From Pseudomonadota bacterium (GTDB lineage: Bacteria > Pseudomonadota > Alphaproteobacteria > Rickettsiales > UBA1997), in contig JAGWWH010000002.1 of assembly GCA_018970485.1 (NCBI GenBank), forward strand, positions 2,465-66,464: a stretch of DNA of 64,000 nucleotides. Direction: 5' to 3'. The number at the start of each line of letters is the position of its first letter. The first letter of the stretch is position 1. The notes under the pieces are model-generated. The model ran no database searches and was not told the DNA's origin. It saw only the letters and a program-made list of their open reading frames with translations. The position numbers and the translations under genes are program-made. This document shows positions 13,215 through 59,951 of the stretch, in pieces.

Positions 13215-13231
13215 AAGGACTAGAAGATTAG

Positions 13232-32018: not shown

Positions 32019-32065
32019 CCAAGACGAGTAAGTACAAAGTCATCCCCGCGCAGGCGGGGATCCAG
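31993..32065. repeat. family-A palindromic repeat, arms in reversed order (CTGGATTCCCGCCTTCGCGGGAATGAC ... GTCATCCCCGCGCAGGCGGGGATCCAG)
   Basis: The two arms are reverse complements of each other, and each arm contains its own hairpin (CCCGC-N4-GCGGG). The element spans the cstA stop (32016-18) and the cstA-ybdD spacer. Confidence 0.85.
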
Positions 32066-41112: not shown

Positions 41113-41991
41113 ATGAAAGAAATCTACAACGATCTTCCAGTGGGAAAACAGCAAGAATTTATGAGAAACTTTTTTGAAACAAAAAGTTTTATCCAAGAAA
41201 AATTTGGCGCAGATAGCCTCAATTTAGAAGAAAATTTCTACACCAAACAACTGCGCAACTATTTCGATTCAACGATCAAAAAACGCCTAAATATCGGATT
41301 CGATAAATTAGAAAATATTCACAAAAGCGTAGATGATCAACTTACCTCTTACGACTTCGATTACGGTATCAATGGCATAACCAAAGCCTTATACGACATG
41401 GACGAAGAGTTCGTTTCAATTTATCACGACTTCATCAAAAACTGGATCGGTAAAAACATCGCCGACGGAAGAAAATTTTGGTTTCAAAAAACTCCTACCA
41501 TTCGAGTTCACTGCCCAGGAGCAAATTCAAAAACCGTTTATCCAGCATATCACAACGATACTTTTCTAGGTCATCATCCTTACGAATTAAATATTTGGAT
41601 TCCATTGACCTACCTAGGAAATGAAGGCCACGGCTTTGATTTGATGGACGTAAATGAATCGAAAGAAATTCTAAAGCCGTATGATTTTGATATTTTTAAG
41701 TACTACGCAGAAGTAAGAAATCACAGCAGCCAAGCATTCAAGGTAACCAGCGAAAAAGCTAAGCCAGTAACTACGGAGTTTGGTCAAATTTTATTGTTTG
41801 ATGTCAGATCACTTCACAGCACTATGCCGATGCATCAACAAACCCGCGTCTCGATGGATGTTAGAATTATTTTTGATGAAGATAAAAATAATCATCCCTT
41901 TGCTCACACCGGACTTGGCAGAATGAAAACACCTTTTGAGCCCGGAGCTTATTACCACGAAAAAGCCGTGCAGAACTCTAGCTTCGCATAG
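41113..41991 (+). CDS. putative non-haem Fe(II)/2-oxoglutarate oxygenase (PhyH-like)
   Basis: 292 aa. A candidate H-x-D (AYHNDTF), a distal His and an Arg (LFDVRSLHSTMPMHQQTRVSMDVR) match the facial triad and 2OG-binding Arg spacing. This is a weak call made by eye. Confidence 0.45.
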   Translation: MKEIYNDLPVGKQQEFMRNFFETKSFIQEKFGADSLNLEENFYTKQLRNYFDSTIKKRLNIGFDKLENIHKSVDDQLTSYDFDYGINGITKALYDMDEEFVSIYHDFIKNWIGKNIADGRKFWFQKTPTIRVHCPGANSKTVYPAYHNDTFLGHHPYELNIWIPLTYLGNEGHGFDLMDVNESKEILKPYDFDIFKYYAEVRNHSSQAFKVTSEKAKPVTTEFGQILLFDVRSLHSTMPMHQQTRVSMDVRIIFDEDKNNHPFAHTGLGRMKTPFEPGAYYHEKAVQNSSFA

Positions 41992-45133: not shown

Positions 45134-46369
45134 TCAAAAGGCAACGAGAGGAATTTTGTTTTTAAGCACCAAAAATTTTCGAGCTATTTTTGCGCTATCC
45201 GCCGCCTGCATGTCGATCTCTTTATCGCCAATCATTAGAGATTTTCTTGGATCGATGTTAAATTCTTCAATTGCCCTCAGAAGCATACCCGGCGCCGGTT
45301 TGCGATCAAATGAGTTTTGACGATATTTTTCAAATTTTCCTTCTGGGTGATATGGGCAGTAAAAAGTTTTGGTGATTTTTATTTCGCGTTTTTGGAACTC
45401 ATTTTCCATCCATTTTGTTAAGTCTAAAAACTCTTCTTCGCTGTAAAAACCTTTAGCAATTCCACCCTGATTTGTGACGACGATTAGCAAATATCCAAGA
45501 TCTTGTGCGCGTTTGCAGAGATCGAAAATTCCGTCGATAAAATCGAATTTTTCTTTCTCAAAAACATGTCCGTGATCGATGTTAATTACACCGTCGCGAT
45601 CGAGAAATAATGCTTTGTTTTTAATGAGATTTGGCAGCTCTTTTTGCGCTCTGGCGTAATCATCAGGAATGCCAATATCGATGAAATATCCATCTGCTAT
45701 AAAAGCTTGCGGCTCAAGCCATGAAAGCTCTTTCGCTAAAAAGTCAGACTCAAAAGAAAATGCCTCTGGAAGTGAAGATCTTTTAAAGATTTTTGGATCT
45801 AAAAGATAAATCCCGCCATTGATGAATCCGGGATTTTTTTCTGACGATTTTTCTTCGAAATTTTTGATCACGAAATTCTCGTCAAAAACTACGCGTCCGT
45901 AACGTGAACAATCTTCTATTTTACGCAAAACCATCATCAGACTGGATCGCCACCCCGAACTTTGTTCGACTCGCGATGACGCGTCTCCGTCATTGCGAGA
46001 AGCGAAGCGACGAAGCAATCCAGAATAATCTACCTCTAAAAATGAATCCCCATTCAGCACTAAAACTGGCCTGTTTTGATCGATAAATTTAAGTGAATTT
46101 ATGATTGCTCCGCCAGTGCCTAAAGGCTTGTCTTCTTTGGCATAAGAGACACTCATTCCTAAATAATTATCGCCAAAATATTCGATGATCTTTTCCTGCA
46201 AATAACCCACCGAGATCACCACTTTTTTTACGCCGTGATTGCGCAAATTCTGCAAAAGATAGGCTAGAAAAGGTTTACCGGAAATATCGGCGAGAGGTTT
46301 TGGCACATCCTTTACAACTGCTTGTAATCTAGTTCCAAAGCCACCCGCTAAAATTATTGCCTGCATCAT
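45134..46369 (-). CDS. fusion protein: sugar-1-phosphate nucleotidyltransferase (HddC-like) + D,D-heptose 1,7-bisphosphate phosphatase (GmhB-like)
   Basis: The N-terminus has AIILAGGFGTRL and VLNGDSF. The C-terminal half has the HAD motif ALFLDRDGVIN, VVTNQGGIAKG and CPYHPEG. It contains a repeat-derived in-frame segment of about 27 aa (residues about 116-143). Confidence 0.8.
   Translation of the reverse strand: MMQAIILAGGFGTRLQAVVKDVPKPLADISGKPFLAYLLQNLRNHGVKKVVISVGYLQEKIIEYFGDNYLGMSVSYAKEDKPLGTGGAIINSLKFIDQNRPVLVLNGDSFLEVDYSGLLRRFASRNDGDASSRVEQSSGWRSSLMMVLRKIEDCSRYGRVVFDENFVIKNFEEKSSEKNPGFINGGIYLLDPKIFKRSSLPEAFSFESDFLAKELSWLEPQAFIADGYFIDIGIPDDYARAQKELPNLIKNKALFLDRDGVINIDHGHVFEKEKFDFIDGIFDLCKRAQDLGYLLIVVTNQGGIAKGFYSEEEFLDLTKWMENEFQKREIKITKTFYCPYHPEGKFEKYRQNSFDRKPAPGMLLRAIEEFNIDPRKSLMIGDKEIDMQAADSAKIARKFLVLKNKIPLVAF
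45942..46023. repeat. family-B palindromic element inside the hddC-gmhB coding sequence
   Basis: CTGGATCGC...CGCGATGACG-CGTCTC-CGTCATTGCGAGAAGCGAAGCGACGAAGCAATCCAG. The outer arms (CTGGATCGC / GCAATCCAG) and inner arms (CGCGATGACG / CGTCATTGCG) are each complementary with one mismatch by hand. Confidence 0.8.
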
Positions 46370-46440
46370 TTATGAGTAATTATTCATCCCTGTACAAATT
46401 CACAAATTCGGTTCCAAAATTTTTCTCCAATCTTCCAACC

Positions 46441-46527
46441 GTCATCCCCGCGAAGGCGGGGATCCAAGAGGGTTTGACACTCGCTCCAAGCTTGATAGTT
46501 CTGGATCCCCGCCTTCGCGGGGATGAC
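46441..46527. repeat. family-A palindromic repeat, full copy (87 bp)
   Basis: GTCATCCCCGCGAAGGCGGGGATCCAAG - spacer - CTGGATCCCCGCCTTCGCGGGGATGAC. It is intergenic between the hddC-gmhB start and the gmhA stop. Confidence 0.9.
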
Positions 46528-46576
46528 GCGGTACTTTCTGAAGCGATATTTTGGAACCGAATTTGCTGACTTGCAT

Positions 46577-46599
46577 AATCCCCGCCTTCGCGGGGATGA
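46577..46599. repeat. family-A repeat, solitary arm
   Basis: AATCCCCGCCTTCGCGGGGATGA, one hairpin arm only, about 50 bp from the full copy. Confidence 0.75.
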
Positions 46600-46613
46600 A
46601 GTGTAGAGATCTA

Positions 46614-47216
46614 TTATTTTTTATTTTTTGGATTGTGAGTTGCGCCAAAAAATTCTTCCTCAATCAAAGCGCAAATTATGTGACCAGCGGCGATGTGACC
46701 TTCTTGAATTTTAGGAGTTTCGTCGGAAGGAATATTGATTTGGTAATCAGAAATCGCGCCAATATCGCGACCATTTTCACCTAAAAATCCGACGGTAATA
46801 ATCTTTTTTGCCGCTGATGATTTAAAGGCTTCGAACACATTTTTGCTGCGGCCAGAAGTTGAAATTCCAATCAAAACATCACCCTCCTGCCCTACGGCCT
46901 CAACTTGTCGCGAGAAAGAATGTAAAAACCCGTAATCATTACCAATCGCTGTCAAAGCAGATGTATCAACGCTTAGCGCCATCGCATTTAAAGGTGGGCG
47001 ATCGTAAGAAAGTTTACTCACCAGCTCCGCCGCTAAATGTTGCGAATCCGCGGCACTGCCACCATTGCCGCAAAACATGATTTTTTTACCTTGCTTCAGA
47101 GATTCGATGCAAACTTTCGCAACAGTTTCGATGTCGCGATGCAATTTTTCGTCAGCTAAAATTTTTTCAAAAACGTCGCGCGTTTTGGTGAATTCGGAAA
47201 TTATGTAATTTTTCAT
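46614..47216 (-). CDS. gmhA: phosphoheptose isomerase (SIS domain)
   Basis: Motifs are CGNGGSAADSQHLAAELV, TAIGNDYGF and ISTSGRSKNV. ATG 47216 forms an ATGA overlap with the hddA stop; the track start at 47231 is TTG. Confidence 0.85.
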   Translation of the reverse strand: MKNYIISEFTKTRDVFEKILADEKLHRDIETVAKVCIESLKQGKKIMFCGNGGSAADSQHLAAELVSKLSYDRPPLNAMALSVDTSALTAIGNDYGFLHSFSRQVEAVGQEGDVLIGISTSGRSKNVFEAFKSSAAKKIITVGFLGENGRDIGAISDYQINIPSDETPKIQEGHIAAGHIICALIEEEFFGATHNPKNKK

Positions 47217-48262
47217 TTGTTGATTCTCCAACTTTGCGAACCCTCGTCAACAAAGTGACAAGGCATAGTTCGACCAGATTTTTCTTGTTCGAGTAAGCGC
47301 AAGATTTTCATTCTTTTTGATGGCGGAACTAAGAACATAATAAAACCACCGCCGCCAGCGCCAGAAATTTTTCCAGCCATTGCGCCGGCATTCATCACCA
47401 TGTTGTAAATACGATCGATATTGCTGTTAGAAATTTTTGCTGAGGCAGATTTTTTTGCCTCCCAGCCGCGCTGCATTGATTCGGCAATCGCTTTGATATC
47501 GCCTCTTAGTAATGCATCCTTCATCTCAAAAGCCTCTTGCTTGATCGCCAACATCGATTTGATCGTCTCTTCTGATTTATTTTCGATGTTTTGATTCTGC
47601 TCTTCAATAATTGCCCCAGAGTCACGTGAGACACCGGTGTAGAATAAAATTAGAGATTGCTCTAGCTCCGATAAAATCCATCTACGAACCTTTAATGGGT
47701 TAATAATTGTTTTATCATCCTTGTGAAATTCCATAAAGTTCACGCCACCAAAAGTAGCAGCATATTGATCCTGCTTTCCCCCTTTCATTTGCAGGTCTTT
47801 GCGCTCAATTTCATAAGCTAAATTAGCAATATCGTAATCACCAAAAGGAATAGAGAGAAGTTCAGCATAAGTCTTGATCATTGAAACCACTAAGGTCGAA
47901 GAAGAGCCAAGACCAGACCCAGGAGGTGAATCGCAATAAGTTGTCATCTTAAAAGCGCCGATCGGCTGACCTTTATTAAAGTCTTTAACGATTCGATTGT
48001 AGATCGCTTTATGCAGCTTAAGAGCTCCAGTTGGCTCAATGTAATCAGTAACCGCAGTTTCAAATTCTTCACCAATATCAGAAGCAACAAATCTAATCTT
48101 CCCGTCGCTTCTTGGTTTAAGGGTGCAGCAGGCATAAAGATCAATCGTAGCATTTAAAACACATCCACCGTGAAGCGAATAAAAAGACTCCATATCAGTT
48201 CCCCCACCCGCTAAACCGAGACGAAGAGGCGATCTTGAGCGGACTAAAAATAATTCTGACAT
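47213..48262 (-). CDS. hddA: GHMP-family D-glycero-D-manno-heptose 7-phosphate kinase (HddA-like)
   Basis: 349 aa. It has the N-terminus RSPLRLGLAGGGTD and the GHMP motif PPGSGLGSSST. Its context is gmhA, gmhB and hddC. Confidence 0.8.
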   Translation of the reverse strand: MSELFLVRSRSPLRLGLAGGGTDMESFYSLHGGCVLNATIDLYACCTLKPRSDGKIRFVASDIGEEFETAVTDYIEPTGALKLHKAIYNRIVKDFNKGQPIGAFKMTTYCDSPPGSGLGSSSTLVVSMIKTYAELLSIPFGDYDIANLAYEIERKDLQMKGGKQDQYAATFGGVNFMEFHKDDKTIINPLKVRRWILSELEQSLILFYTGVSRDSGAIIEEQNQNIENKSEETIKSMLAIKQEAFEMKDALLRGDIKAIAESMQRGWEAKKSASAKISNSNIDRIYNMVMNAGAMAGKISGAGGGGFIMFLVPPSKRMKILRLLEQEKSGRTMPCHFVDEGSQSWRINK

Positions 48263-48265
48263 CGA

Positions 48266-49282
48266 TTATCTCGTTAAAAACTTCTCACCTTTCGCAACTC
48301 TGTCACGCCAGTAATCGAGCAGATCTTGCATGATTTGCTCAAACTTAATTTCCGGTTTCCAGCCGGTATGTTGTTCAAATTTTTTAGTATTTGGAACCTG
48401 TAAATCGGCATCGATCGGACGCAATCTTTCTGGATCGGTTTCGATTTTAATTTTGTCTTTCGCAGTCGAAATCGAGATTAAGTGATTCAACATTTCGCGA
48501 ATTGTGCAGCTGAAAGTTCCGCCGATATTGTAATATTCTCCAGCCTTTGGATTCACGGTTACCAACATGTAATAAGCCTTCACCGCATCGCGCACATCAG
48601 CAAAAGTTCGCAGTGAATCGAGATTGCCAACCTTGATTACTGGCGGAATCACACCCGCTTCAATCAAGGCGATTTGTTTGGCAAAAGAACTTTCCGCAAA
48701 AACATCACCACGACGTGGACCCGTGTGAGTAAACATGCGTGTTGTCATCACCGTTAAGCCGTAGGCCTCGGCGTAATAACGACCAACTAAATCTGTTCCA
48801 ACTTTTGAAATCGCGTAAGGCGAAGCGGGATGAAATGTGCATTCTTCGTCGATCGGAAGCTTCTCTTTTGGCACACGACCAAACACTTCTGACGAAGCAC
48901 AAACGTGAATTACTGGTTTTAATTCCGGCATTTTACGCACCGCTTCAAGAACGCGCGCAGTGCCTTGAATATTGGTTTCAAAAGTATCGAGCGGAGATTC
49001 AAAACTAGTTTGCGGATAGCTCTGCGCCGCAAGATGAAAAATGTAATCTGGCTTAGATTTTTTCATCACATCGTGAACAGAAATGTAATCGCGCAGATCG
49101 CCGTAGAGCAAATGAACGCGATCTTTTTTGTTAATGCGTTCGAGTAAGTGAGAAATGTTGTCGAGCGGACTGCGCCAGCGACACATTCCGTAAATTTCCC
49201 AATCGGTATTTTCTAATAAAAAGTCAGTCAGGTGAGACCCGACCATACCGGTGATTCCGGTGATTAATGCGCGTTTAGTCAT
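48266..49282 (-). CDS. GDP-sugar 4,6-dehydratase (Gmd/DmhA-like SDR)
   Basis: 338 aa. Motifs are ITGITGMVGSHL, ASSEVFG, YAISK and the Gmd-type HTGPRRGDVF. Confidence 0.8.
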   Translation of the reverse strand: MTKRALITGITGMVGSHLTDFLLENTDWEIYGMCRWRSPLDNISHLLERINKKDRVHLLYGDLRDYISVHDVMKKSKPDYIFHLAAQSYPQTSFESPLDTFETNIQGTARVLEAVRKMPELKPVIHVCASSEVFGRVPKEKLPIDEECTFHPASPYAISKVGTDLVGRYYAEAYGLTVMTTRMFTHTGPRRGDVFAESSFAKQIALIEAGVIPPVIKVGNLDSLRTFADVRDAVKAYYMLVTVNPKAGEYYNIGGTFSCTIREMLNHLISISTAKDKIKIETDPERLRPIDADLQVPNTKKFEQHTGWKPEIKFEQIMQDLLDYWRDRVAKGEKFLTR

Positions 49283-49306: not shown

Positions 49307-50353
49307 TTACTGATTCAGTATTTTTTTGATATTGGCCTCAAACTCAACCACATCTACGATCTGGTCGGTATGAAATTCATTCAAATAGGTGTTGGCTTTA
49401 TCGACTTCGCAATATTGGTAAAAATGCTCTAGGTTAAATGCTTGCGACTTCTCGCGGATAATAATCGCCCCAGGAAGATCATCATATTCTCTTCTTGGAT
49501 AAAGTTCGAGAATTTTAGTGCCCGCCTGACAAAACATAATGTTGGTCAGATTCGATCCGCACTGACCAACAACAACCTTCGCATTGTAAGCAATCGACAC
49601 ACTGTCAGCAAAACTAAAATCCTCCATGTGAACTGTGGTAAATCCGTATTTAGACAAAACTTTATCCACCTCTGTCTGATTCAAAATAATGCGTTTTTTC
49701 TGCTTGCTGCGCGAGATAAAAATTCTTTCGCCAAGACTAAAATTTAAACGGTTATTCTTTCTACAGTAGTCAAGAATAGTGTTGGCAACCTCAACGGTCA
49801 CCGAGTCGTAAGTTGTAGTCGGCCCCCCTCCTCCGAGAATAAAAGTGGGGAAGATCACATGATTCGATGTCACTGCTTCGCGCTTATCAAACTTGATGAC
49901 TCGTTCTTTAGAAATTCCGATCATTTCCAAAGTTTCTAGGCAAAAATTGTTCTCATAAAAAATCTTAGGAAGTGCGACCTTAAAATCATTTTTGTAATGC
50001 TTCTTTACCAGATAAGCTCTGACCAAATTATCACACATCCAGTGGCTAAAATAAGGCGAATATCCATCTGCAATAACAAGCACTGGCACATCTTTCGTGT
50101 CGATGATTTTGCTCTTAAAATAGAGATGAACTAGCAGCTTCTGTATGCGGTAAAAACTTCTTGGAAAGTCAGGGCGCGACTCTCTCATGAAGCGCAATCC
50201 ACGAAAAATAAGGTTATTAAGATTTACGTAAGCCTTACCAAAATCGATCAATTTTACTTCCGCAGTTTTTTTCAAAACTGTCTTCGGCGCAGAATAATTT
50301 GATGGCAGAGTGCGACTGATTTCTATTTGTGGCAAAATGATTTCTGACTTCAT
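49307..50353 (-). CDS. putative glycosyltransferase (GT61/DUF563-like)
   Basis: 348 aa. The C-terminal pattern FSFADSVSIAYNAKVVVGQCGSNLTNIMFCQAGTKILEL resembles the DUF563 motif (..HGAGLTN..F....T.V.EL). Confidence 0.5.
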   Translation of the reverse strand: MKSEIILPQIEISRTLPSNYSAPKTVLKKTAEVKLIDFGKAYVNLNNLIFRGLRFMRESRPDFPRSFYRIQKLLVHLYFKSKIIDTKDVPVLVIADGYSPYFSHWMCDNLVRAYLVKKHYKNDFKVALPKIFYENNFCLETLEMIGISKERVIKFDKREAVTSNHVIFPTFILGGGGPTTTYDSVTVEVANTILDYCRKNNRLNFSLGERIFISRSKQKKRIILNQTEVDKVLSKYGFTTVHMEDFSFADSVSIAYNAKVVVGQCGSNLTNIMFCQAGTKILELYPRREYDDLPGAIIIREKSQAFNLEHFYQYCEVDKANTYLNEFHTDQIVDVVEFEANIKKILNQ

Positions 50354-52098
50354 GGAGCCCTGCGATAATTATTAAATTTATTTAGTGAGTGAATCTCTGC
50401 CTCGGGAAGATAAGGATATTGATCGTGAATCGCCCTGCCCATTTCAAGCTTGGGCTCAATCAAAGTGTTGGGATGTAAAATAATATCAATCACAGCTGGG
50501 CCTTGGTAGTCAAAAATTTCCTGAGTGACGTCATCAATTTCGTTAATTCGGAAATATTTTACACCGTAGGCTTCAGCAATTTTTCCGAAATCTGGAGCGC
50601 TGTAAGAATGGCCAGTAGCCTCATATCTGCCTTCAAAATAAAGGTCCTGAAACTGTTTTATGATTCCGTAACCGTCATTATTAAGAATGAAAATCTTAAT
50701 ATTTAGCTTGTTGAAGTAAGCGGTTTGCAATTCTTGGATATTCATCTGGAAAGATCCGTCACCTGTAAATGCAATCACTTGAGCTTGCGGCTTGTGCAAG
50801 GCGGCTCCAATGGCGGCCGGAAATGAATAGGCCATCGGAGAATTACCGCCCGCTGTATAAATTATCTGATTGGTGCGGTGAAATATCTGAAAAACCCAAC
50901 ATAGATTAGCGCCAGTATCAGCGATAACTATGGCATCATCTTCGATCATTTTATTGATTTTCTGAATCACTCCGTAAGGCGACAGGCTCTTATTTTTTTT
51001 AGAAAATTCACCAGCATCTTTGCCGAAAAATTCTTTTTTGATACTTGCTACATAATCAATCCACTCCTGGCTTGGAGTAGGCACTACCGTCAAAACTTCT
51101 TTGATATCTTTTAAGTTAAGGTGAATGGTTTTGTAACCTTCATTTTTGTATTTTTTTAGCTCCTCAACATCGACATCAATCACACAAACTTTTGCAACTG
51201 GAGCAAAGGATTTTGGATTTCCCGATCTCTGCCTGTTGTCCAATCGACTACCAAGAACCAGTAACGCATCACAGTTCTGAACTAAAAAATTCGCACCGCG
51301 ATTTCCATAAACTCCAATCTGACCATGATAATTTTTCATGTCGTGATTGAAGTAAGTAAGGCCATTCCAACTTGCAACGAAAGGGACTGATGAGTTTTTG
51401 TTTAGCCATTCAACGACATCTTTTTCCGTACCAGAAAGCCCTACTCCCGCACCAAATAACACTGCTGGTCTTTTTGCATCTTTGAAAAATTCGGCAATTT
51501 CTTGTGAGATTTTTTGTGATTCTTGAGTTGATATTTTTTCTTCTTTCGGCGCGTTGTAAATAATCACATCACCGACTTCCTCCTTCTGAACATTCATCGG
51601 AACGTCGATCAGGACTGGGCCTTTGCGATCAGATATGGCGATATTGTAAGCCTTTTCTAATTCAATCTTGAGCTCCTCACCATTCTTAACCTGAACCGCA
51701 TATTTTGTGATTGGCTTAACCATATCGACGATGTTGGTTTCTTGAAAACCCGCTTGTCTAACTTTCGTGCCAATAAAATTCGCACTTTCGCTTTGGTTAA
51801 CTTGCCCAGTGATATGAACAGTTGGAATTGAATCGAAATAAGAACAGGCAATTCCGGTAATCAAATTCGTCGCGCCAGGACCAGAAGTTGCAACAGTGAC
51901 ACCAACTGTGCGATCAACTCTCCACAAAGAATCCGCTGCCATTGCCGCCGCTTGTTCGTGCTGAAAACACACGTAATCAGTTTTTGGATTTCTGCCAATC
52001 GCATCAACGATAAATGCACAAGCGCCACCAGTTACGAGAAAAAATTTATCCGATCCCCTCTGGCGAAAAAACTCCGCGATATATTCCGCTCCAATCAT
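50350..52098 (-). CDS. ThDP-dependent acetolactate-synthase-like enzyme (YerE-like candidate)
   Basis: 582 aa with three-domain AHAS-like architecture. It has N-terminal GVTVATSGPGATN and the ThDP motif GDGSFQMNIQEL...NNDGYG. No ilvN or ilvC is adjacent; it is embedded among CDP-sugar genes. Confidence 0.8.
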   Translation of the reverse strand: MIGAEYIAEFFRQRGSDKFFLVTGGACAFIVDAIGRNPKTDYVCFQHEQAAAMAADSLWRVDRTVGVTVATSGPGATNLITGIACSYFDSIPTVHITGQVNQSESANFIGTKVRQAGFQETNIVDMVKPITKYAVQVKNGEELKIELEKAYNIAISDRKGPVLIDVPMNVQKEEVGDVIIYNAPKEEKISTQESQKISQEIAEFFKDAKRPAVLFGAGVGLSGTEKDVVEWLNKNSSVPFVASWNGLTYFNHDMKNYHGQIGVYGNRGANFLVQNCDALLVLGSRLDNRQRSGNPKSFAPVAKVCVIDVDVEELKKYKNEGYKTIHLNLKDIKEVLTVVPTPSQEWIDYVASIKKEFFGKDAGEFSKKNKSLSPYGVIQKINKMIEDDAIVIADTGANLCWVFQIFHRTNQIIYTAGGNSPMAYSFPAAIGAALHKPQAQVIAFTGDGSFQMNIQELQTAYFNKLNIKIFILNNDGYGIIKQFQDLYFEGRYEATGHSYSAPDFGKIAEAYGVKYFRINEIDDVTQEIFDYQGPAVIDIILHPNTLIEPKLEMGRAIHDQYPYLPEAEIHSLNKFNNYRRAP

Positions 52099-52116
52099 TT
52101 TATTTTCGTTTGAATT

Positions 52117-52893
52117 TTACCAAATTTTCCAAGGAGCTTTTTTCGAATCCCACAATCCTTCGAGATGAATTTTGTCGCGTTGAGTATCCATCGCATACCA
52201 AAAATTCTCATGTTTGAAAGACATGAGTTGGCGATCGGAGGCCAGGTTTTTCAAGGGTTCTTGCTCAAGAATTACTGAATCTCCTTCAGGGATATAATCA
52301 AAAACCTTCGGCGAAAAAACAAAAAATCCGCCATTGACGTAGTTGCCATCGCCAGATGGTTTTTCATGAAAATTATGAATGGTTTTATCGTCATCGGCAA
52401 TTCCCAAAACGCCGAATCGCCCTGCTGGCTTGACTGCGGTCAGGGTTGCGATTTTTCCATGCGACTTATGAAATTTTATTGTTTCAGCAATATTCACGTC
52501 GCAAACGCCGTCGCCGTAAGTCAGGCAGAAATCTTCGTCACCGACATATTTTTGGATTTTCTTGATACGCGCGCCAGTCATCGCGTGCTCACCAGTTTCA
52601 ACAAGAGTAACTTTCCAATCTTCTGAAGAGTTGTTGTGAATAACTTGAGTATTGTTCGCCAAATCGAAAGTGATGTCCGACATGTGACGGTAGTAGTTAG
52701 CAAAATACTCTTTCACGACGTAGCCCTTATACCCCAAACAAACCACGAATTCATTGATGCCGTGGGCTGCGTAAATTTTCATGATGTGCCACAAAATCGG
52801 CTTACCACCAATTTCAACCATCGGCTTTGGCTTAAGGCCGGTTTCTTCGCTAAGTCTTGTGCCAAGGCCACCGGCGAGGATTACTGCTTTCAT
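52117..52893 (-). CDS. rfbF: glucose-1-phosphate cytidylyltransferase
   Basis: 258 aa. MKAVILAGGLGTRLSEETGLKPKPMVEIGGKPILWHIMKIY is the near-canonical RfbF/DdhA N-terminus. Confidence 0.9.
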   Translation of the reverse strand: MKAVILAGGLGTRLSEETGLKPKPMVEIGGKPILWHIMKIYAAHGINEFVVCLGYKGYVVKEYFANYYRHMSDITFDLANNTQVIHNNSSEDWKVTLVETGEHAMTGARIKKIQKYVGDEDFCLTYGDGVCDVNIAETIKFHKSHGKIATLTAVKPAGRFGVLGIADDDKTIHNFHEKPSGDGNYVNGGFFVFSPKVFDYIPEGDSVILEQEPLKNLASDRQLMSFKHENFWYAMDTQRDKIHLEGLWDSKKAPWKIW

Positions 52894-53939
52894 AAATTTT
52901 TATTATTTTGATGCCAAATGAAGGTGTTTTTTATCGCTTTTTCTAAGGAGGTATATTCCTCCAAACCCAACTCCCGCCTAGCTTTTTCGTTAGATGGAAT
53001 GTAGCGCGAACTTGAAGAAGTATTGAATCCCGCATTATCGGAAAAAACAATTTTTGATTCTGAGGAAAGGGTTTTAACGACCAAATCAGCGAGGTCGGCG
53101 ATTAAAATTTCTTTTTCTGAACCCAAGTTAAAGACCGAATTATTCGGCGCTGAAATTAAAATTCGCATCAGCCAAATCACCAAATCAATCGAATAGAGAT
53201 AGGAGCGGTAAGTCTTCGTCTTGGAGTTAAGAGCTACGTTTTTTTGCGCAGCAACGTCACGAATGAAATTTCCAATCGCATAATGGCCATCAAAATTCAT
53301 GTAAGGCCCGACGAAACTAAAACAGCGCGCGACAGATGTATGAACGCCGTGAGTGGAAGAATAAATTGAGCACAAAGTCTCACCTAATCTTTTTGCTTCG
53401 CCGTAAACTGAAGAAATTTTTTGCAAATCAGGTGCGGATAAATCGCTTTCTTGTCGCAACTCAACATCAAGATTTTGTGCGCCGTAAATTGCGCCAGAGC
53501 TTAAATATAAAAATCTGCAACCCTCATTCCGCCTAGCAATTTCAAGCATATTGAGCGTGCCTTGATAATTTTCTTCGAGGAATTTTTGCGGAGAATTTTT
53601 CAATCTTTCAGCGGAAGTGTCACAAGCGGCGTGAATTACGTAATCAACTTTGTGAACAAAATTTTTTAGCTCAGAAATGTCTGATTGAATCGGAAAAATT
53701 CTGGGTGAACTAAGAAGCGAAAATTTTTTTTGAAAATTTATTACATCTCTCGAGACCGCGTAAATTGTGAGTCCAAGATTATTCTTCTTATCAAGATAGA
53801 GCAGAGATTCCAGCAAACATCTGCCAAAAAAACCGCTCCCTCCCGAAACAAAAATCGACTTGTTTTTCAACGAACCAAGCAGGTCGGAGAGCTTGGATTG
53901 CACAAGCTCAAGATCTGATTGGTCGATTGAAAAATTCAT
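52890..53939 (-). CDS. NAD(P)-dependent sugar epimerase/reductase (extended SDR)
   Basis: 349 aa. It has GGSGFFG (GxxGxxG) and YGEAK (YxxxK). ATGA and 1-nt overlaps tie it to rfbF and the E1-like gene. Confidence 0.7.
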   Translation of the reverse strand: MNFSIDQSDLELVQSKLSDLLGSLKNKSIFVSGGSGFFGRCLLESLLYLDKKNNLGLTIYAVSRDVINFQKKFSLLSSPRIFPIQSDISELKNFVHKVDYVIHAACDTSAERLKNSPQKFLEENYQGTLNMLEIARRNEGCRFLYLSSGAIYGAQNLDVELRQESDLSAPDLQKISSVYGEAKRLGETLCSIYSSTHGVHTSVARCFSFVGPYMNFDGHYAIGNFIRDVAAQKNVALNSKTKTYRSYLYSIDLVIWLMRILISAPNNSVFNLGSEKEILIADLADLVVKTLSSESKIVFSDNAGFNTSSSSRYIPSNEKARRELGLEEYTSLEKAIKNTFIWHQNNKNL

Positions 53940-55132
53940 TAGATTTTAGTTTTGATGAATTCTTCGATTGTTGAATGCATGTGAGCAATCATTTCGTCGT
54001 TCAATCCGTGGTGACAAGCTAACAAAACCCCACCGCGCATTATGTTATCTGAGTTTGCAAGACTTGCGGCTTTGCGCATTTCGATATTTTTAAAGCCGGG
54101 TTGACGCGTGATATTTCCGGTAAAAACGACGCGGGTCTGGATGTTTCTTTTTTCCAAGAAAATTTGGAAATCACGACGCTCGAATGGCGCAGAATTTTTA
54201 ATAATGATCGGGAAAGCCAGCCATCCTGCGTAACAATTCTTGGTCTCTTCCGGCAGCGTAAAAAACTCTTCATATTTTTTGAAAAAACTGATTTGAGTTT
54301 GGTAGTTTTTGCGGCGTATCGAGATATTGCTTTGTAAATCGTGAAGTTGCTCGAGACCAAATGCCGCGCCGATTTCAGAGCCTTCTAAATTGTAGCCGAT
54401 AGCTTCAAAAACGAACTTTGCGTCGTAATTAATTCCATCGATATCGACGTTAAAACGATTTTCGATTGCTTCAGATTTTTCGTCAAAAATTGAAGAGCTG
54501 CGACCCCAAGAACGCAGAAGTTTTGATTGTTTTACATGCTCTTCGTCATTGATGCAAAGCGCGCCGCCGTTGCCTGCGCAGTTGATAATGTGCGATCCGT
54601 AAAAACTAGTGATCGACATGTCAGACCAAGCCCCACTTGATTTGCCGTGAAGGGTTCCACCTAAAACATCGGCAGAATCTTCGATTATTTTTAAATTATA
54701 CTTCTTGGCAATTTCGGCGATTTTATCCCACTCGCAAATATTTCCGATCAAGTTCGGCGCAAGAATTGCCACGGTTTTTGGCGAAATCATTTCTTCGATT
54801 TTTGCTGGATCGATGCAGTAGCTGGCAACGCCGGCATCGACAAAAACTGGAATCAAACCTGCCTTAACAATAGAGCCGACAGTTGTTGAAAATGTGAGTG
54901 CAGGAGTGATTACTTCTGAACCTTTTTTAAAACCGAAAGCTTCAACGCCGATGTAGAGCGCGGAAGATCCAGAGTTAACGTAAAGACAATGTTTTTTGGC
55001 AAAAAGTGCTGCGATTTTTGCTTCAAATTCGCGCGCATATTTTCCCATTTGCGTGCCTTCTTTTAGGCATTTTACGACGGCATCAATTTCTTTCTGGCCG
55101 TAGACAGTTTTGGCGTAAGAGACCGAGATCAT
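53939..55132 (-). CDS. RfbH/E1-like PMP-dependent sugar 3-dehydratase homologue lacking the Fe-S cysteine motif
   Basis: 397 aa from ATG 55132; the track ORF to 55204 begins in repeat-derived LDPRLRGDD. RfbH-like features are NSGSSALY, IEDSAD, SFYGSHIIN (His for Lys), RSWGR, GYNL and TRVVFTGNITRQPGF. Confidence 0.75.
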   Translation of the reverse strand: MISVSYAKTVYGQKEIDAVVKCLKEGTQMGKYAREFEAKIAALFAKKHCLYVNSGSSALYIGVEAFGFKKGSEVITPALTFSTTVGSIVKAGLIPVFVDAGVASYCIDPAKIEEMISPKTVAILAPNLIGNICEWDKIAEIAKKYNLKIIEDSADVLGGTLHGKSSGAWSDMSITSFYGSHIINCAGNGGALCINDEEHVKQSKLLRSWGRSSSIFDEKSEAIENRFNVDIDGINYDAKFVFEAIGYNLEGSEIGAAFGLEQLHDLQSNISIRRKNYQTQISFFKKYEEFFTLPEETKNCYAGWLAFPIIIKNSAPFERRDFQIFLEKRNIQTRVVFTGNITRQPGFKNIEMRKAASLANSDNIMRGGVLLACHHGLNDEMIAHMHSTIEEFIKTKI

Positions 55133-55165
55133 TAGTTTAAATTTAAAGTTGGTTGGTATGAAAGC

Positions 55166-55246
55166 GTCATCCCCGCGCAGGCGCGGATCCAGGAGAGCCC
55201 ACAACGCGCTGAAACTTTCCTGGATCCCCGCCTGCGCGGGGATGAC
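55166..55246. repeat. family-A palindromic repeat, full copy (81 bp)
   Basis: GTCATCCCCGCGCAGGCGCGGATCCAG - spacer - CTGGATCCCCGCCTGCGCGGGGATGAC. It is intergenic between the GT10-like gene and the E1-like gene. Confidence 0.9.
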
Positions 55247-55307
55247 GGGAGAGAAGATCGGAAATAAATTATAGAACTGAGCTGGTGAAATTTTACAGTA
55301 TGGCGTG

Positions 55308-56426
55308 TTACTTAAGTTTCAGGAACAGAAAATAGTCGGTTAAAGCCAACTGTAATTTGACGAATTTTTTACGCAGAGAATTTTTAATTCTTTGGAAAAA
55401 ATTCTTTTTCTTCACGATTAAAAAATCTGGATTTAGCGCTAAAAAGTGATCCCAGTTTTTTAAAGAGATCATCTCTTTCTTGCTGTATTTACCTGCATCT
55501 GCAGCGACAATCTCAGAAATTAAATTGTAAATATTATACTTATCCATCACCAAATCTTTCGCCTGCAAAATTTTCTCTTTTGATTTTTCGTAAGTGTTTT
55601 CAGCGATCACTTTTTCGATTATCGCAAAAGCAGTTTTTGGATATCTGATATCAATTTGCGTGAGCATTTCGCGATCGAAATATTCATGAATGTTCGGCGC
55701 GCCGTAGTAGATGGGATAGGCTCCCGCCATGAAAGCATCGGCAAGTTTTTCCGTCCAATAATCGTTGGAACTACTGTTTTCTAGTGAGAGGTGATATTTG
55801 TAAGGCGCGATGCCGTCCCATTTATTTGGCATGTCGCGAACTCCAGCGCCAAACCAATCTAGTTTATCTTTGAAGTGATTCTTGGCCTGAGTGCAAAATT
55901 CTAGGCGAGCTTTGTGTCCAAGAATGCAAACTTTATTTGAACAAAAAACCGAAAGTAGTTTTGGCTTTTCATAGTCACGCATCTTTTTGAAGTCATCGTA
56001 ACCAAAACCTTCGCCTTTCCACTTATTGAAATCTTCACCACTTTTAATCGGATGTCCGGCATCAACCCACCAATTCATCGGTGAATGAGCCTTGTAAACT
56101 CTAGGATGCTTGGCCTTAGCGTGCGAAACGTAAAGGCGATAAAATTGATTGATGAAAGGCGTGAGAGAATCGTAGCGAATTATTTCTGGCGGCTCGCAAG
56201 CCATGAAAATCACGTTTTCTTTCGGGCAAAGACAAGTTTCGTGAGCAAAACTTTCGCCAATAATTATCCAATAATCTGCTTCGGTGATTGAGGCATCGTT
56301 GTAAAAAAATTCGCAGTTTTTCCAAATATTTCCGCGGCCCGGCAGGAATTTATTTATTAACGGATTGGAGTGATCCGGCGCTGCAATTGTCGTGTTTCCG
56401 CAACTAATTTTTACTCTGACTGTCAT
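55308..56426 (-). CDS. glycosyltransferase family 10-like (fucosyltransferase-type)
   Basis: 372 aa. The sequence FCSNKV...YKYHLSLENSSSNDYWTEKLADAFMAGAYPIYYG matches the GT10 motifs (YKF.L.FEN...Y.TEK... P.Y.G) as in Helicobacter FutA (from memory). Confidence 0.65.
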   Translation of the reverse strand: MTVRVKISCGNTTIAAPDHSNPLINKFLPGRGNIWKNCEFFYNDASITEADYWIIIGESFAHETCLCPKENVIFMACEPPEIIRYDSLTPFINQFYRLYVSHAKAKHPRVYKAHSPMNWWVDAGHPIKSGEDFNKWKGEGFGYDDFKKMRDYEKPKLLSVFCSNKVCILGHKARLEFCTQAKNHFKDKLDWFGAGVRDMPNKWDGIAPYKYHLSLENSSSNDYWTEKLADAFMAGAYPIYYGAPNIHEYFDREMLTQIDIRYPKTAFAIIEKVIAENTYEKSKEKILQAKDLVMDKYNIYNLISEIVAADAGKYSKKEMISLKNWDHFLALNPDFLIVKKKNFFQRIKNSLRKKFVKLQLALTDYFLFLKLK

Positions 56427-57265
56427 TATTTACCGAATCTTTTTTGTAATTTTTTCTTGGCTTTTTGTACTAAAAAAAATTTACCAAATAAGCCATAGCC
56501 CCTAGAGCTACATTGCTTCAAAATATCAAGCTGATCTTGCTGCATCTCCTTTCTTGAGGATGAAATTTTATTCTCAGAATTTCCTAAAGACTTTTGCCAA
56601 GCTTTAACTTGCTCTTCTTCAGACAATTCTATTTTTGTCTGACGCCAGTTGTAAATCGAGCGCGGCGAATAAATTAATTTTCCCTCACGCGCCATGTTGC
56701 AGATGAAAACGTGATCATTGCCAATCATCGCTTTCATCGGATATTTTTGCGCAACTTTAGTACAAAAAATTCCAAAAAGTGCCGAGACTTCATGAAGGTG
56801 CGCGATCAAGCAATATACGCGCTCTGCCGCATAATCAGAAGTTAGGCGATTAGCGTACCAAAAATCATAAGTTCCGATTTCAACATCATCATTATCAATC
56901 GCGCGTGAAGCGGGATAACAACCAACGGCATCACTATTTTCAAGGATGTGTAGCATGTGTTTGGTGTAACCTTCGTCCAAATAATCGTGACCACCCATCC
57001 ACATAAAATATTTGGTTTTCGCTTCCTTGAGTAGGAAATTAAAATTCACCGTTCCGCCCACATTTTCAGCATGTCGGATGTAAACTAAGTTTGAATATTT
57101 CTGCGCCAATTCTTCACAAATTTTCTGCGTATCGTCAGTTGAAGCATTGTCAGAAACGATCACGCATCCTGCTTGATCGATGCAAGATTCTATCGTTTTA
57201 CGAATATACTTGGACTCGTTATAAGCAGGAATACCAATGGTTAGTAGGTTTTTGTAATATTTCAT
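56426..57265 (-). CDS. glycosyltransferase family 2
   Basis: 279 aa. Pattern: LTIGIPAYNESKYIRKTIESCIDQ...VIVSDNASTDDT. Confidence 0.75.
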   Translation of the reverse strand: MKYYKNLLTIGIPAYNESKYIRKTIESCIDQAGCVIVSDNASTDDTQKICEELAQKYSNLVYIRHAENVGGTVNFNFLLKEAKTKYFMWMGGHDYLDEGYTKHMLHILENSDAVGCYPASRAIDNDDVEIGTYDFWYANRLTSDYAAERVYCLIAHLHEVSALFGIFCTKVAQKYPMKAMIGNDHVFICNMAREGKLIYSPRSIYNWRQTKIELSEEEQVKAWQKSLGNSENKISSSRKEMQQDQLDILKQCSSRGYGLFGKFFLVQKAKKKLQKRFGK

Positions 57266-57266
57266 T

Positions 57267-58313
57267 TCACGCTATGAATTTTCTGATTTGTTCGACGGTA
57301 AAATTCTTCACATTAGTTTTGTTTTTGAGGTAATTTCCGTACCAACGAGCCGTCCATTCAAGTGTTTCTTCGAAAGATAATTTTGGCTGCCAGTTAAGTT
57401 CTTTTGTGGCGAGAGAGTGGTTTAGTTTTAGGATTCCCGCTTCGTGTAGAGTGGCATCAGCTGCAATTTCGTAAGCTCCGATGCCGATTTTTTCGATTAA
57501 AGTTTTCGTCAGAATTTCAACATTTTGCTCCGCATCTTTATTGGGACCGAAGTTGTAAGCCTTCGCAAAATCCTCACCTTTTTCGTAAAGATTTTTTGTC
57601 AGTAATAAATATCCGTAAAGCGGCTCAAGCACGTGCTGCCAAGGTCTGATTGCATTTGGTGAGCGCAATCTAACTTTCTCACCCGCACGAATTGCGCGAA
57701 AAATATCGGGAATAATTCGATCCACAGAAAAATCTCCGCCGCCAATCACGTTGCCGGCGCGGGCTGAAGCGAGGTGGATTCCTTCTTTTTGAAAAAATGA
57801 ACGACGGTAAGAAGAGGTTAGAATTTCTGCGCAAGCCTTGCTCGATGAATAAGGATCGTAGCCTCCGAGCGCGTCGTCTTCTTGGTAGGCGTAATCAATC
57901 TCGCGATTTTCGTAACATTTGTCGGTGGTAATATTTGTGATCACCTTCACCGAGCCCGCTTGGCGCGCCGCTTCAAAGACATTGAGCGTGCCAATTACGT
58001 TAGTTTCGTAAGTTTTTCTCGGATCAAAATAAGAGTCGCGAACCAATGGCTGCGCCGCTAAATGCAAAATGATTTCTGGCTGAAAATTTTTTACCGCTGA
58101 TGCGATTTCGTCAGAATTTCTAATGTCGCCGATTATTGATTTTTCCAATCCCGACGCAACTTCGGCCGAGTTAAATAAACTTTCTTCATCTGCCTTTAGC
58201 GAAAATCCCACCACGCTTGCACCCATCATTGTCAACCACATCGCAAGCCAAGAGCCTTTGAATCCAGTGTGTCCGGTAAGGAATATTTTTTTGCCAGAGT
58301 AAAAGTTTTTCAT
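57267..58313 (-). CDS. rfbG: CDP-glucose 4,6-dehydratase
   Basis: 348 aa. The N-terminus KKIFLTGHTGFKGSWLAMWLTMMGASVVGFSL is the RfbG/DdhB signature, and YSSSK provides YxxxK. Confidence 0.9.
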   Translation of the reverse strand: MKNFYSGKKIFLTGHTGFKGSWLAMWLTMMGASVVGFSLKADEESLFNSAEVASGLEKSIIGDIRNSDEIASAVKNFQPEIILHLAAQPLVRDSYFDPRKTYETNVIGTLNVFEAARQAGSVKVITNITTDKCYENREIDYAYQEDDALGGYDPYSSSKACAEILTSSYRRSFFQKEGIHLASARAGNVIGGGDFSVDRIIPDIFRAIRAGEKVRLRSPNAIRPWQHVLEPLYGYLLLTKNLYEKGEDFAKAYNFGPNKDAEQNVEILTKTLIEKIGIGAYEIAADATLHEAGILKLNHSLATKELNWQPKLSFEETLEWTARWYGNYLKNKTNVKNFTVEQIRKFIA

Positions 58314-59119
58314 TTAAAAACTTTTCTTAAGTAACTGATTGTTGGCCTCTCAACAAAAAGATGATTCGCTACCGAGATCGCAATGATCGCAGCGATTAAA
58401 ACAAGATACCAAAAGGCATTAATCACCCAAAGATCACTGTCGGTAAATCCATGCAAAAATCTTCCTAACTTGGTTAGAAGTGGCTGATGCAGTAAATACA
58501 GAGAGTAAGAGGCTTCACCAAGCAAAATCATTGAGGGTGGGATTTTTAATTTTAAATCCAGCTCGGCAATTCCGTTGCGAAAAAATAAGCAGAGAAAGGC
58601 GCCAAAACAAAATTCGTAGTTGTAAGCGGAAAGAAAAACGCTGTCGCTCTGACGAAAGAATGTAGCAAGACAAAATAGAAAAATTCCGAAGTAAAATTTC
58701 CGTCCAAAGATCAACATTGAGAGCGCGAAAATTAGGTAAAACCAAATCTCATAACTTAATGTCCAGGCGACATCTAGAATCATTTCCCTTCTATGCTCCG
58801 GCTCTGGTGACAAAAAAAGAAGATCGCCAGCAATATCAAAATTTGCGAGGCCATGCACAAGTATTCCAACAATTAAGCACTCGATGTAAATCGGATAAAT
58901 CCTAATAAATCTCTTGATAAAAAACCGCCTGACCGGCTCCACTTTATCGTGATGCAGATGAGCCATGATGAAGCCACTAATCACGAAAAATATATCGACC
59001 CCATACACACCAGTCTTGGTTTCTATCGGAATAAAATAATCGCCGATGTGAACAACGAGAACCATGAGCGCGGCAACAGCACGGAAAAATTGGATCAAAT
59101 TTATCTTTTTAACTTCCAT
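58310..59119 (-). CDS. acyltransferase family 3 (O-acetyltransferase)
   Basis: 269 aa, polytopic. Motifs are FRAVAALMVLVVH, GVDIFFVISGF, RIYPIY, WTLSYEIWFY and EASYSLYLLH. Confidence 0.8.
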   Translation of the reverse strand: MEVKKINLIQFFRAVAALMVLVVHIGDYFIPIETKTGVYGVDIFFVISGFIMAHLHHDKVEPVRRFFIKRFIRIYPIYIECLIVGILVHGLANFDIAGDLLFLSPEPEHRREMILDVAWTLSYEIWFYLIFALSMLIFGRKFYFGIFLFCLATFFRQSDSVFLSAYNYEFCFGAFLCLFFRNGIAELDLKLKIPPSMILLGEASYSLYLLHQPLLTKLGRFLHGFTDSDLWVINAFWYLVLIAAIIAISVANHLFVERPTISYLRKVFK

Positions 59120-59865: not shown

Positions 59866-59951
59866 GTCATCCCCGCGAAGGCGGGGATCCAGAATAACGC
59901 GCTCTGAGTAAGTGAATGATCCTCCTGGATTCCCGCCTACGCGGGAATGAC
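59866..59951. repeat. family-A palindromic repeat, full copy (86 bp)
   Basis: GTCATCCCCGCGAAGGCGGGGATCCAG - spacer - CTGGATTCCCGCCTACGCGGGAATGAC. It lies between aroQ and the ABC ATPase gene at the right edge of the glycan locus. Confidence 0.9.

Follow-up and report, generated by a model that had tools for sequence, protein, structure and literature searches.

Does a glycan locus in a Rickettsiales-like soil bacterium encode a route to a branched-chain sugar of the yersiniose type, and if so, by what chemistry would that route proceed? The question is raised by a stretch of 64,000 nucleotides (nt) from Pseudomonadota bacterium assembly GCA_018970485.1 (contig JAGWWH010000002.1, positions 2,465 to 66,464 of the forward strand; hereafter the window, with all coordinates given as positions within it), in which genes for cytidine diphosphate (CDP)-hexose synthesis adjoin a gene for a thiamine diphosphate (ThDP)-dependent enzyme resembling acetohydroxyacid synthase (AHAS). 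In Yersinia pseudotuberculosis O:VI, yersiniose A is made by DdhA, DdhB, DdhC/E1, DdhD/E3, YerE and YerF, and a first-pass annotation of the window had read the locus as a candidate for this same pathway. Here, we find that the locus probably specifies the CDP-linked synthesis of a yersiniose-type sugar, a 3,6-dideoxyhexose with a branch at C-4. The pathway logic is yersiniose-like, yet three canonical features are missing: the ThDP enzyme does not belong to the YerE orthogroup, the 3-dehydratase has neither the iron-sulfur cluster of E1 nor an E3 partner, and the reductase is not of the Yersinia YerF type.

Five genes make up the module, and the open reading frames match exactly the coordinates that the first-pass annotation had given, all on the minus strand. 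In the direction of transcription these encode a CDP-glucose 4,6-dehydratase (RfbG/DdhB; 57267–58313), a homologue of the E1-lineage, pyridoxamine 5'-phosphate (PMP)-dependent 3-dehydratase of the DegT family (RfbH-like; 53939–55132), an extended short-chain dehydrogenase/reductase (SDR; 52890–53939), a glucose-1-phosphate cytidylyltransferase (RfbF/DdhA; 52117–52893) and the ThDP enzyme (50350–52098). The overlapping stops and starts described earlier are borne out by overlaps of 1–4 nt: the RfbH-like and SDR genes have 1 nt in common, the SDR gene overlaps the RfbF gene by 4 nt, and the stop of the ThDP gene overlaps the next gene downstream, encoding a GT61-family glycosyltransferase, by 4 nt; an 18-nt gap separates the RfbF and ThDP genes. 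The assignment of rfbF and rfbG to the synthesis of CDP-4-keto-6-deoxyglucose also stands at the level of protein family, as both products pass their NCBIfam equivalog cut-offs (TIGR02623, 413 bits against a cut-off of 300, and TIGR02622, 468 bits against 278, respectively).

The identity of the ThDP enzyme decides whether this module could make a branched sugar. The 582-residue protein, a member of the AHAS-like decarboxylase superfamily, contains all three ThDP-enzyme domains (Pfam N, M and C), the catalytic glutamate within an HEQ sequence, and a canonical ThDP motif (GDGSFQ...NN). Its top NCBIfam matches are AHAS models, yet it scores below the cut-off of every one of them (TIGR00118, 386 bits against a cut-off of 538, E = 3e-115). 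Among proteins of solved structure its best match is the Pseudomonas protegens YerE homologue PpYerE (5AHK, 315 bits), followed by E. coli IlvB (277 bits) and JanthE (8RPH, 271 bits). Ketones serve as acceptors of decarboxylated 2-oxo acids for YerE, PpYerE and JanthE, as shown by experiment (PMC12247030, PMC12188165). For comparison we assembled a canonical set of 80 yerE loci by scanning species-representative genomes with the 5AHK sequence; these include Yersinia species, Pseudomonas simiae and Aliivibrio fischeri ES114, and their YerE proteins share 48–71% identity with PpYerE. A profile built from them scores its own members at 890–980 bits, the window enzyme at 454, the wider clade of its close relatives (the window clade) at 433–454 and AHASs at 354–363. 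Reciprocally, a profile of the window clade scores YerEs at 414–442 bits, JanthE at 392 and AHASs at 308–353.

Phylogenetic placement against IlvB and IlvI, which had been put forward as the check on the YerE assignment, sides with YerE and JanthE. In a neighbour-joining tree rooted with Escherichia coli Gcl, PoxB and Oxc (taken, like IlvI, from an E. coli K-12 record), 98% of 200 bootstraps split a group of the window clade, YerE and JanthE from the AHASs and outgroups, and in 67% the window clade is sister to JanthE. The window enzyme, YerE and JanthE also have in common an insertion of 6–8 residues between the GQVN and FQE sequences that is not found in AHAS, Gcl or PoxB. Finally, the claim that no ilvN partner accompanies the gene holds: a single IlvH/IlvN-like match turns up in the window, no better than chance (29% identity over 58 residues, E = 0.017), and no IlvC-like protein is found among the annotated open reading frames. 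Thus, the sequence evidence indicates that the ThDP enzyme is most likely a YerE-like sugar-branching carboligase rather than an acetolactate synthase. As for the earlier equation of this enzyme with YerE, membership in the YerE-type carboligase group is upheld and orthology is not: at 33–37% identity to the canonical YerEs, the enzyme lies outside their orthogroup in a separate sister clade.

That clade is far from rare. It comprises more than 120 protein clusters at 58% identity or above and occurs in more than 500 metagenomic stretches, and the nearest homologues of the window enzyme come from alphaproteobacterial metagenome-assembled genomes (88% identity) and Candidatus Deianiraea vastatrix (69%). 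The suggestion that such a module would be unusual in an alphaproteobacterium of this type is therefore not sustained. Consistent with a role in sugar metabolism, homologues of RfbF, RfbG and RfbH/DdhC lie near the ThDP gene in each of seven distinct contigs examined, whose window-clade enzymes are 60–88% identical. Among these, L086 (ThDP enzyme 84% identical) retains the window's order of RfbH-like, SDR, RfbF and ThDP genes, while L088 (60%) shows the canonical order ddhA, ddhB, ddhC, ThDP gene, SDR gene. Pooling the seven contigs with 80 loci from a metagenome scan, and retaining those of 55% identity or more with 6 kb or more of flank, left 23 loci, 20 of which contain CDP-module genes.

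We consider the strongest contextual argument for a branching enzyme at this position to come from a sister genome, L090, in which RfbG, GT2, GT10, RfbH-like (92% identical), SDR (89%) and RfbF genes precede not an AHAS-like gene but a split transketolase (277 and 304 residues; 12980–14720 of that contig). Because a split transketolase, also a ThDP enzyme that transfers acyl anions, stands in place of the window-type enzyme, the slot would appear to hold an enzyme that adds a carbon unit to a keto-sugar. Besides the YerE-type enzymes, a branching role on keto-sugars has been suggested for two further ThDP superfamilies, split transketolases and E1-type (alpha-KADH2) enzymes, and according to a 2025 review the putative ketone-accepting split transketolases have so far all come from Streptomyces, with none characterized in vitro (PMC12247030).

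The reductase provides a second connection to yersiniose loci, though not to those of Yersinia. The window SDR aligns with the SDR encoded directly after yerE in A. fischeri ES114 (L044, 11607–12644) at 35% identity over 341 residues (E = 1.6e-66), whereas its match to YerF of the Yersinia/Pseudomonas type covers only 133 residues at 25% identity (E = 1.5e-6); by sequence, the two are unrelated beyond the general SDR fold. Next to yerE in the 80 canonical loci, we find a Yersinia-type reductase in 57 and an A. fischeri/window-type reductase in 19, never both; the remaining four loci, two of which are incomplete, have neither. Around the window-clade genes the pattern recurs, with one of the two types in 12 of the 23 pooled loci and both together in none. 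Since the two lineages are mutually exclusive next to yerE, there is good evidence from sequence and gene neighborhood that they represent alternative YerF analogues. The first-pass identification of the SDR as YerF thus survives in the sense of a putative branch-ketone reductase of the A. fischeri type, and fails in the sense of a Yersinia-type YerF. The O-antigen of A. fischeri (V. fischeri) contains yersiniose (PMC7940393). We speculate that the two SDR lineages might yield different stereochemistry, as in yersiniose A versus B.

The RfbH-like enzyme also departs from the Yersinia model. It scores 321 bits against the RfbH model NF011936, below the cut-off of 423; its best match of solved structure is Yersinia E1, a CDP-6-deoxy-L-threo-D-glycero-4-hexulose 3-dehydrase (3BCX, 219 bits, versus 138 bits for ColD), and its predicted fold likewise matches E1 best, with a TM-score of 0.85 to 3BCX. 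A histidine aligns with E1 His220, the position occupied by lysine in the E1 H220K mutant (3BB8); histidine in place of the catalytic lysine is a hallmark that distinguishes PMP-dependent 3-dehydratases from aminotransferases (PMC8987622). Both this histidine and the Ser-His motif are invariant in 120 database relatives of at least 73% identity, and on account of the histidine we rejected an aminotransferase reading of the gene. At the same time, the positions of the four [2Fe-2S] ligands of E1 (Cys193-X57-Cys251-X-Cys253-X7-Cys261) are taken by Ala, Ser, Ile and Ile, and none of the 120 relatives carries any of the cysteines. All four are kept in canonical DdhCs and in the DdhC homologues of the more distant window-clade loci L001, L005, L088 and L089. 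Because the combination of histidine present and cysteines absent is common to all 120 relatives, the cluster-free proteins form, on sequence grounds, a coherent and strongly conserved family rather than the remains of a decayed gene.

The partner reductase is missing as well. DdhD/E3, defined by its Fer2, FAD_binding_6 and NAD_binding_1 domains, was detected in 38 of the 80 canonical yerE loci (the reference DdhD was confirmed by Pfam), and tblastn found no match to it anywhere in the window, nor in the window-clade loci; the count among the pooled window-clade loci is zero. We therefore rejected the canonical E1/E3 mechanism: with neither [2Fe-2S] cysteines nor ddhD, C-3 deoxygenation cannot take place as it does in Yersinia. 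Of the earlier proposal that this gene encodes DdhC, the 3-dehydratase catalytic histidine remains, and the cluster and the DdhD partner do not. A precedent for 3-deoxygenation without cluster or reductase is ColD (PMC8987622). The gene's start also stands as first annotated: the ATG at 55132 is preferred over an upstream TTG at 55204 that would lengthen the protein, as the TTG lies inside a palindromic repeat and most relatives, like the protein read from the ATG, are 397 residues long. The family is also found in other settings. In L091 and L092, cluster-free members (74–76% identical) occur with no CDP-glucose genes within 10 kb, one adjoining only a gene for a 298-residue SDR and the other alone among unrelated genes.

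Taken together, these data suggest the following pathway. RfbF would form CDP-glucose and RfbG would convert it to CDP-4-keto-6-deoxyglucose, both by family assignment. The RfbH-like enzyme, which should use PMP because histidine replaces the catalytic lysine, would then remove the 3-hydroxyl while leaving the 4-ketone in place. Given the lack of [2Fe-2S] ligands and of an E3 partner, it would most likely follow a ColD-like route, with hydrolysis of the enamine and with glutamate serving to restore PMP. We propose, from phylogeny and context, that the ThDP enzyme transfers the acyl anion formed by decarboxylation of a 2-oxo acid to C-4 of CDP-4-keto-3,6-dideoxyglucose, producing a tertiary alcohol with an acyl branch. 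Pyruvate, giving an acetyl unit, would be the most likely donor because no PanB-like or aldolase gene accompanies the ThDP enzyme. The SDR, judging from its homologues in the YerF position, would reduce the branch ketone to a 1-hydroxyalkyl group, and the GT2, GT10-like and GT61 transferases encoded nearby may install the finished sugar.

A number of observations weigh against this pathway. At the most general level, it rests on protein families, phylogeny and gene context. The ThDP enzyme is 35% identical to E. coli IlvB, about level with its identity to the YerEs, and the tree that separates them contains few AHAS references (IlvB, IlvI and Ilv2) and lacks AlsS, YpYerE, ErwE and MMAR_2332. 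Three of the pooled loci with good flanks, L117, L119 and L127, have no CDP genes. In L003, the closest relative (88%), and in L004, a fusion of a DegT-family aminotransferase with a GNAT domain occupies the SDR position, and this fusion could be read as tailoring the sugar's C-4 ketone rather than its branch. A PanB-like gene stands beside the ThDP gene in 28 of the 80 metagenome loci, so the usual donor of the window clade may not be pyruvate. The dehydratase, finally, is nearer in sequence to E1 than to ColD despite having neither E1's cluster nor its E3, and it contains six near-invariant, family-specific cysteines (residues 22, 106, 133, 185, 193 and 373 of the 53939–55132 product), making a relocated metal site possible. 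Cys185 lies in a one-residue insertion four residues past the catalytic histidine, and the AlphaFold model is unreliable in the active-site and former cluster loops. If the RfbH-like enzyme is not a 3-dehydratase, the acceptor of the ThDP enzyme must be different.

These points lend themselves to alternative accounts of the locus. One is that its product is an ordinary CDP-3,6-dideoxyhexose with no branch, or a derivative substituted at position 4: the SDR would be a C-4 ketoreductase, the L003-type fusion would aminate and acetylate C-4, and the ThDP enzyme, with PanB in many loci, would make a separate small acyl or hydroxy-ketone substituent or precursor instead of acting on the sugar ketone. 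The exchange of an SDR for a DegT-GNAT fusion at a single position is indeed a classic pattern of sugar 4-ketone tailoring, and the ThDP-PanB pair is conserved; in L117, it forms a cassette with a class I/II aminotransferase and an SDR that has no CDP genes nearby; in L127, the ThDP gene is solitary among housekeeping genes. We nevertheless consider this account improbable. Homologues of the window SDR fill the YerF slot in the 19 canonical loci described above and never coexist there with the other YerF type, and a C-4 reductase in A. fischeri, which makes yersiniose (PMC7940393), would destroy the substrate of YerE. The clade of the ThDP enzyme groups with enzymes proven to accept ketones, a split transketolase replaces it in the L090 slot, and the L003 arrangement has an alternative explanation in the transamination of an acetyl branch, for which kibdelomycin offers a precedent (PMC12247030).

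A different alternative retains the branch and changes the sugar. On this account the product would not be yersiniose, either because the RfbH-like enzyme does not deoxygenate C-3, in which case CDP-4-keto-6-deoxyglucose would be the acceptor and a 6-deoxy-4-C-branched hexose the product, or because, as with ErwE when erwiniose is made, the 2-oxo acid donated is longer or hydroxylated, which would give a branch of three or more carbons. In line with the first route, the dehydratase lacks two defining features of E1 and misses the RfbH cut-off. In line with the second, PanB-like genes are paired with ThDP enzymes 80–88% identical to that of the window (L003 and L087), 4-hydroxy-2-oxo acids, which ErwE prefers as donors (PMC12247030), could be the products of a PanB-like enzyme, and JanthE, the nearest characterized relative in the tree, accepts many donors (PMC12188165). 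Homologues of PanB (ketopantoate hydroxymethyltransferase) directly follow the ThDP gene in L001, L003, L005, L087 and L089 (in L087 at 11755–12591, 340 bits to PF02548); their role might be to provide a hydroxymethylated 2-oxo acid as donor or to lengthen the branch. Yet the window contains no PanB-like, aldolase or other donor-supplying gene, and neither does L086, whose gene order is identical; moreover, the catalytic histidine and Ser-His motif are invariant and ColD needs no cluster (PMC8987622). We thus regard this second alternative, too, as an unlikely description of the window locus. As for a genuine AHAS large subunit serving branched-chain amino acid synthesis and placed in a sugar cluster by chance, its AHAS-model matches, its identity to IlvB and the annotation of its relatives as 'acetolactate synthase' notwithstanding, we reject it as highly implausible given scores far below all AHAS cut-offs, the absence of a small-subunit gene from the window and of an IlvC-like protein from its annotated open reading frames, the 98% bootstrap separation from IlvB, IlvI and Ilv2, the YerE-type loop insertion, and a translational coupling to sugar genes whose context is conserved in relatives.

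How, then, would the proposed yersiniose-type pathway compare with characterized systems? The gene set of the Y. pseudotuberculosis type occurs in Yersinia, Pseudomonas simiae and other loci (L006–L042). With these the window has in common a CDP-glucose module leading to a 4-keto-deoxyhexose (DdhA 57–67% and DdhB 46–52% identical), a three-domain ThDP enzyme and an adjacent gene for an NAD(P)H-dependent reductase. It differs in the low identity of the ThDP enzyme and its score on the YerE profile (454 versus 890–980 bits for members), in an E1 homologue without [2Fe-2S] cysteines or ddhD, and in a reductase from another SDR lineage. The A. fischeri ES114 O-antigen locus (ddhA 62%, ddhB 50% identical) has the window-type SDR directly after yerE, but its YerE is canonical, its DdhC contains the cluster, and it encodes DdhD. 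JanthE of Janthinobacterium sp. HH01 represents the nearest characterized branch of the tree and carries the same loop insertion, yet is only about 30% identical and has CDG rather than GDG in its ThDP motif. ColD, a GDP-4-keto-6-deoxy-D-mannose 3-dehydratase (GDP, guanosine diphosphate), resembles the RfbH-like enzyme in having histidine for lysine, no Fe-S cluster and no dedicated reductase; the window protein is nonetheless nearer to E1 and lies in a CDP rather than a GDP context. Compared by published description, ErwE/ErwF (erwiniose, Pectobacterium) and MMAR_2332 (caryophyllose) present the same logic of a YerE-like enzyme acting on CDP-4-keto-3,6-dideoxyglucose, followed by a reductase (PMC9306805), but use long hydroxylated donors from a clustered aldolase and dehydrogenase, neither of which is found in the window. 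That YerE-like enzymes are widespread is not new: a review refers to more than 200 of them surveyed in silico (PMC12247030), and candidates from Alphaproteobacteria have been put forward before. To this picture the present locus adds a large sister clade of YerE, with at least 120 protein clusters, hundreds of metagenomic loci and a sugar context.

The five module genes belong to a larger unit. Genes between 49.3 and 59.1 kb form a co-directional, translationally coupled operon section of a surface-glycan island of about 27 kb (32.3–59.1 kb), of which the CDP-module genes are the upstream third. The first gene of the island (58310–59119, minus strand) encodes an acyltransferase-3 family membrane protein (PF01757, 72.5 bits) that may O-acylate the glycan, and overlaps the start of rfbG by 4 nt. 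Two glycosyltransferase genes, also on the minus strand, intervene between rfbG and the rest of the module, one of the GT2 family (56426–57265; PF00535) and one GT10-like (55308–56426; PF00852, 35 bits); both keep this position in L003, L086, L087 and L090. The GT61-family gene that follows the ThDP gene (49307–50353, minus strand; PF04577, 78.9 bits) is present too in the syntenic islands of L086 and L087. A scan for promoters and terminators gave no signal above chance. In the sister genomes L086, L087 and L090, smaller versions of the island lie between the flanking genes that it has in the window, which encode a transketolase, a CDP-alcohol phosphatidyltransferase, AroQ and an ABC ATPase. 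G+C content is about 40% throughout the window, and soil-metagenome runs contain window DNA. From the latter, the nearest ThDP homologues and the VirB genes noted below, the source is taken to be an uncultured, Rickettsiales-like alphaproteobacterium of soil.

Beyond the CDP module, the island encodes a GDP-heptose module and further tailoring enzymes. Genes at 45134–49282 (minus strand) specify a GDP-D-glycero-D-manno-heptose pathway consisting of an HddC-GmhB fusion, GmhA, HddA and a GMD-like 4,6-dehydratase, and a ColD-like 3-dehydratase (32277–33557, plus strand; 276 bits to ColD, with an SHHIT motif) lies at the far end of the island; the two together suggest a sugar of the 3,6-dideoxyheptose type. 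Directly after the GDP-heptose genes, a 686-residue fusion of pyruvate-dehydrogenase-type E1 alpha and beta subunits (43023–45083, minus strand), of the alpha-KADH2 type, is possibly a second sugar-branching system. Its relatives are widespread (47–93% identity), three of them (P0357, P0358 and P0360) with an added nucleotidyltransferase domain, and in Thalassotalea (L097) such a gene is followed by genes for a B12-radical S-adenosylmethionine (SAM) enzyme, a nucleotidyltransferase and a GHMP kinase, beside flagellar genes. The window island also contains a B12-binding radical SAM enzyme (39482–41002), an adenine phosphoribosyltransferase fused to a methylthioadenosine/S-adenosylhomocysteine nucleosidase-like domain (38364–39479) that might clear radical-SAM by-products, and a weak match to a 'sporadic carbohydrate cluster' 2-oxoglutarate-Fe(II) oxygenase (41113–41991, plus strand).

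These features allow a broader reading, which we put forward tentatively and judge rather unlikely as a whole, in which an E1-lineage 3-dehydratase with neither [2Fe-2S] cluster nor E3 coexists with two different ThDP sugar-branching systems in one glycan locus. The dehydratase would rely either on chemistry like that of ColD or on a cysteine site that has moved, the YerE-like enzyme would act on the CDP-dideoxyhexose, and the alpha-KADH2-type fusion, the B12-radical SAM enzyme and the ColD-like dehydratase would act on a sugar derived from GDP-heptose. If this is true, the RfbH-like family would constitute a fourth mechanistic type of 3-dehydratase alongside E1, ColD and SpnQ, and an active cluster-free family would alter the textbook division in which the CDP pathway uses E1/E3 radical reduction and the GDP pathway uses ColD. 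Likewise, the transketolase substitution in L090, if it reflects a change of branching enzyme, would extend sugar branching of the transketolase and alpha-KADH2 types from actinomycete antibiotics to Gram-negative cell-surface glycans, and the L090 split transketolase and the window's E1 alpha-beta enzyme would be natural comparators. Among antigenic determinants, C-branched deoxysugars are rare, and the ThDP enzymes behind them are wanted as catalysts for chiral tertiary alcohols. The main interest of the locus lies in its cluster-free E1-like family and in the three ThDP superfamilies found around one module, and its contents point to a complex, variable surface glycan in this Rickettsiales-like soil bacterium.

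Several minor features of the window deserve mention. Four intergenic sites in or close to the island (32008–32050, 46441–46600, 55165–55247 and 59866–59951) carry a G+C-rich palindromic element whose arms read GTCATCCCCGCG.AGGCGGGGATCCAG; its 12-mer seed matches nine times against 0.08 expected. The copy at 55165–55247, between the GT10-like and RfbH-like genes, has arms of 33 nt that are 94% complementary and a hairpin z-score of -9.6; the element resembles repetitive extragenic palindromes (REP) or miniature inverted-repeat transposable elements (MITE). Outside the island, VirB8-like and VirB9-like genes and an open reading frame of 1977 residues with a TrbL/VirB6 domain (11500–13214 and 20679–26612) are typical of type IV secretion systems of the Rickettsiales type, and a gene at 2309–3187 (plus strand) encodes a KirBac-like bacterial homologue of inward-rectifier potassium channels (Pfam IRK_C and Ion_trans_2).

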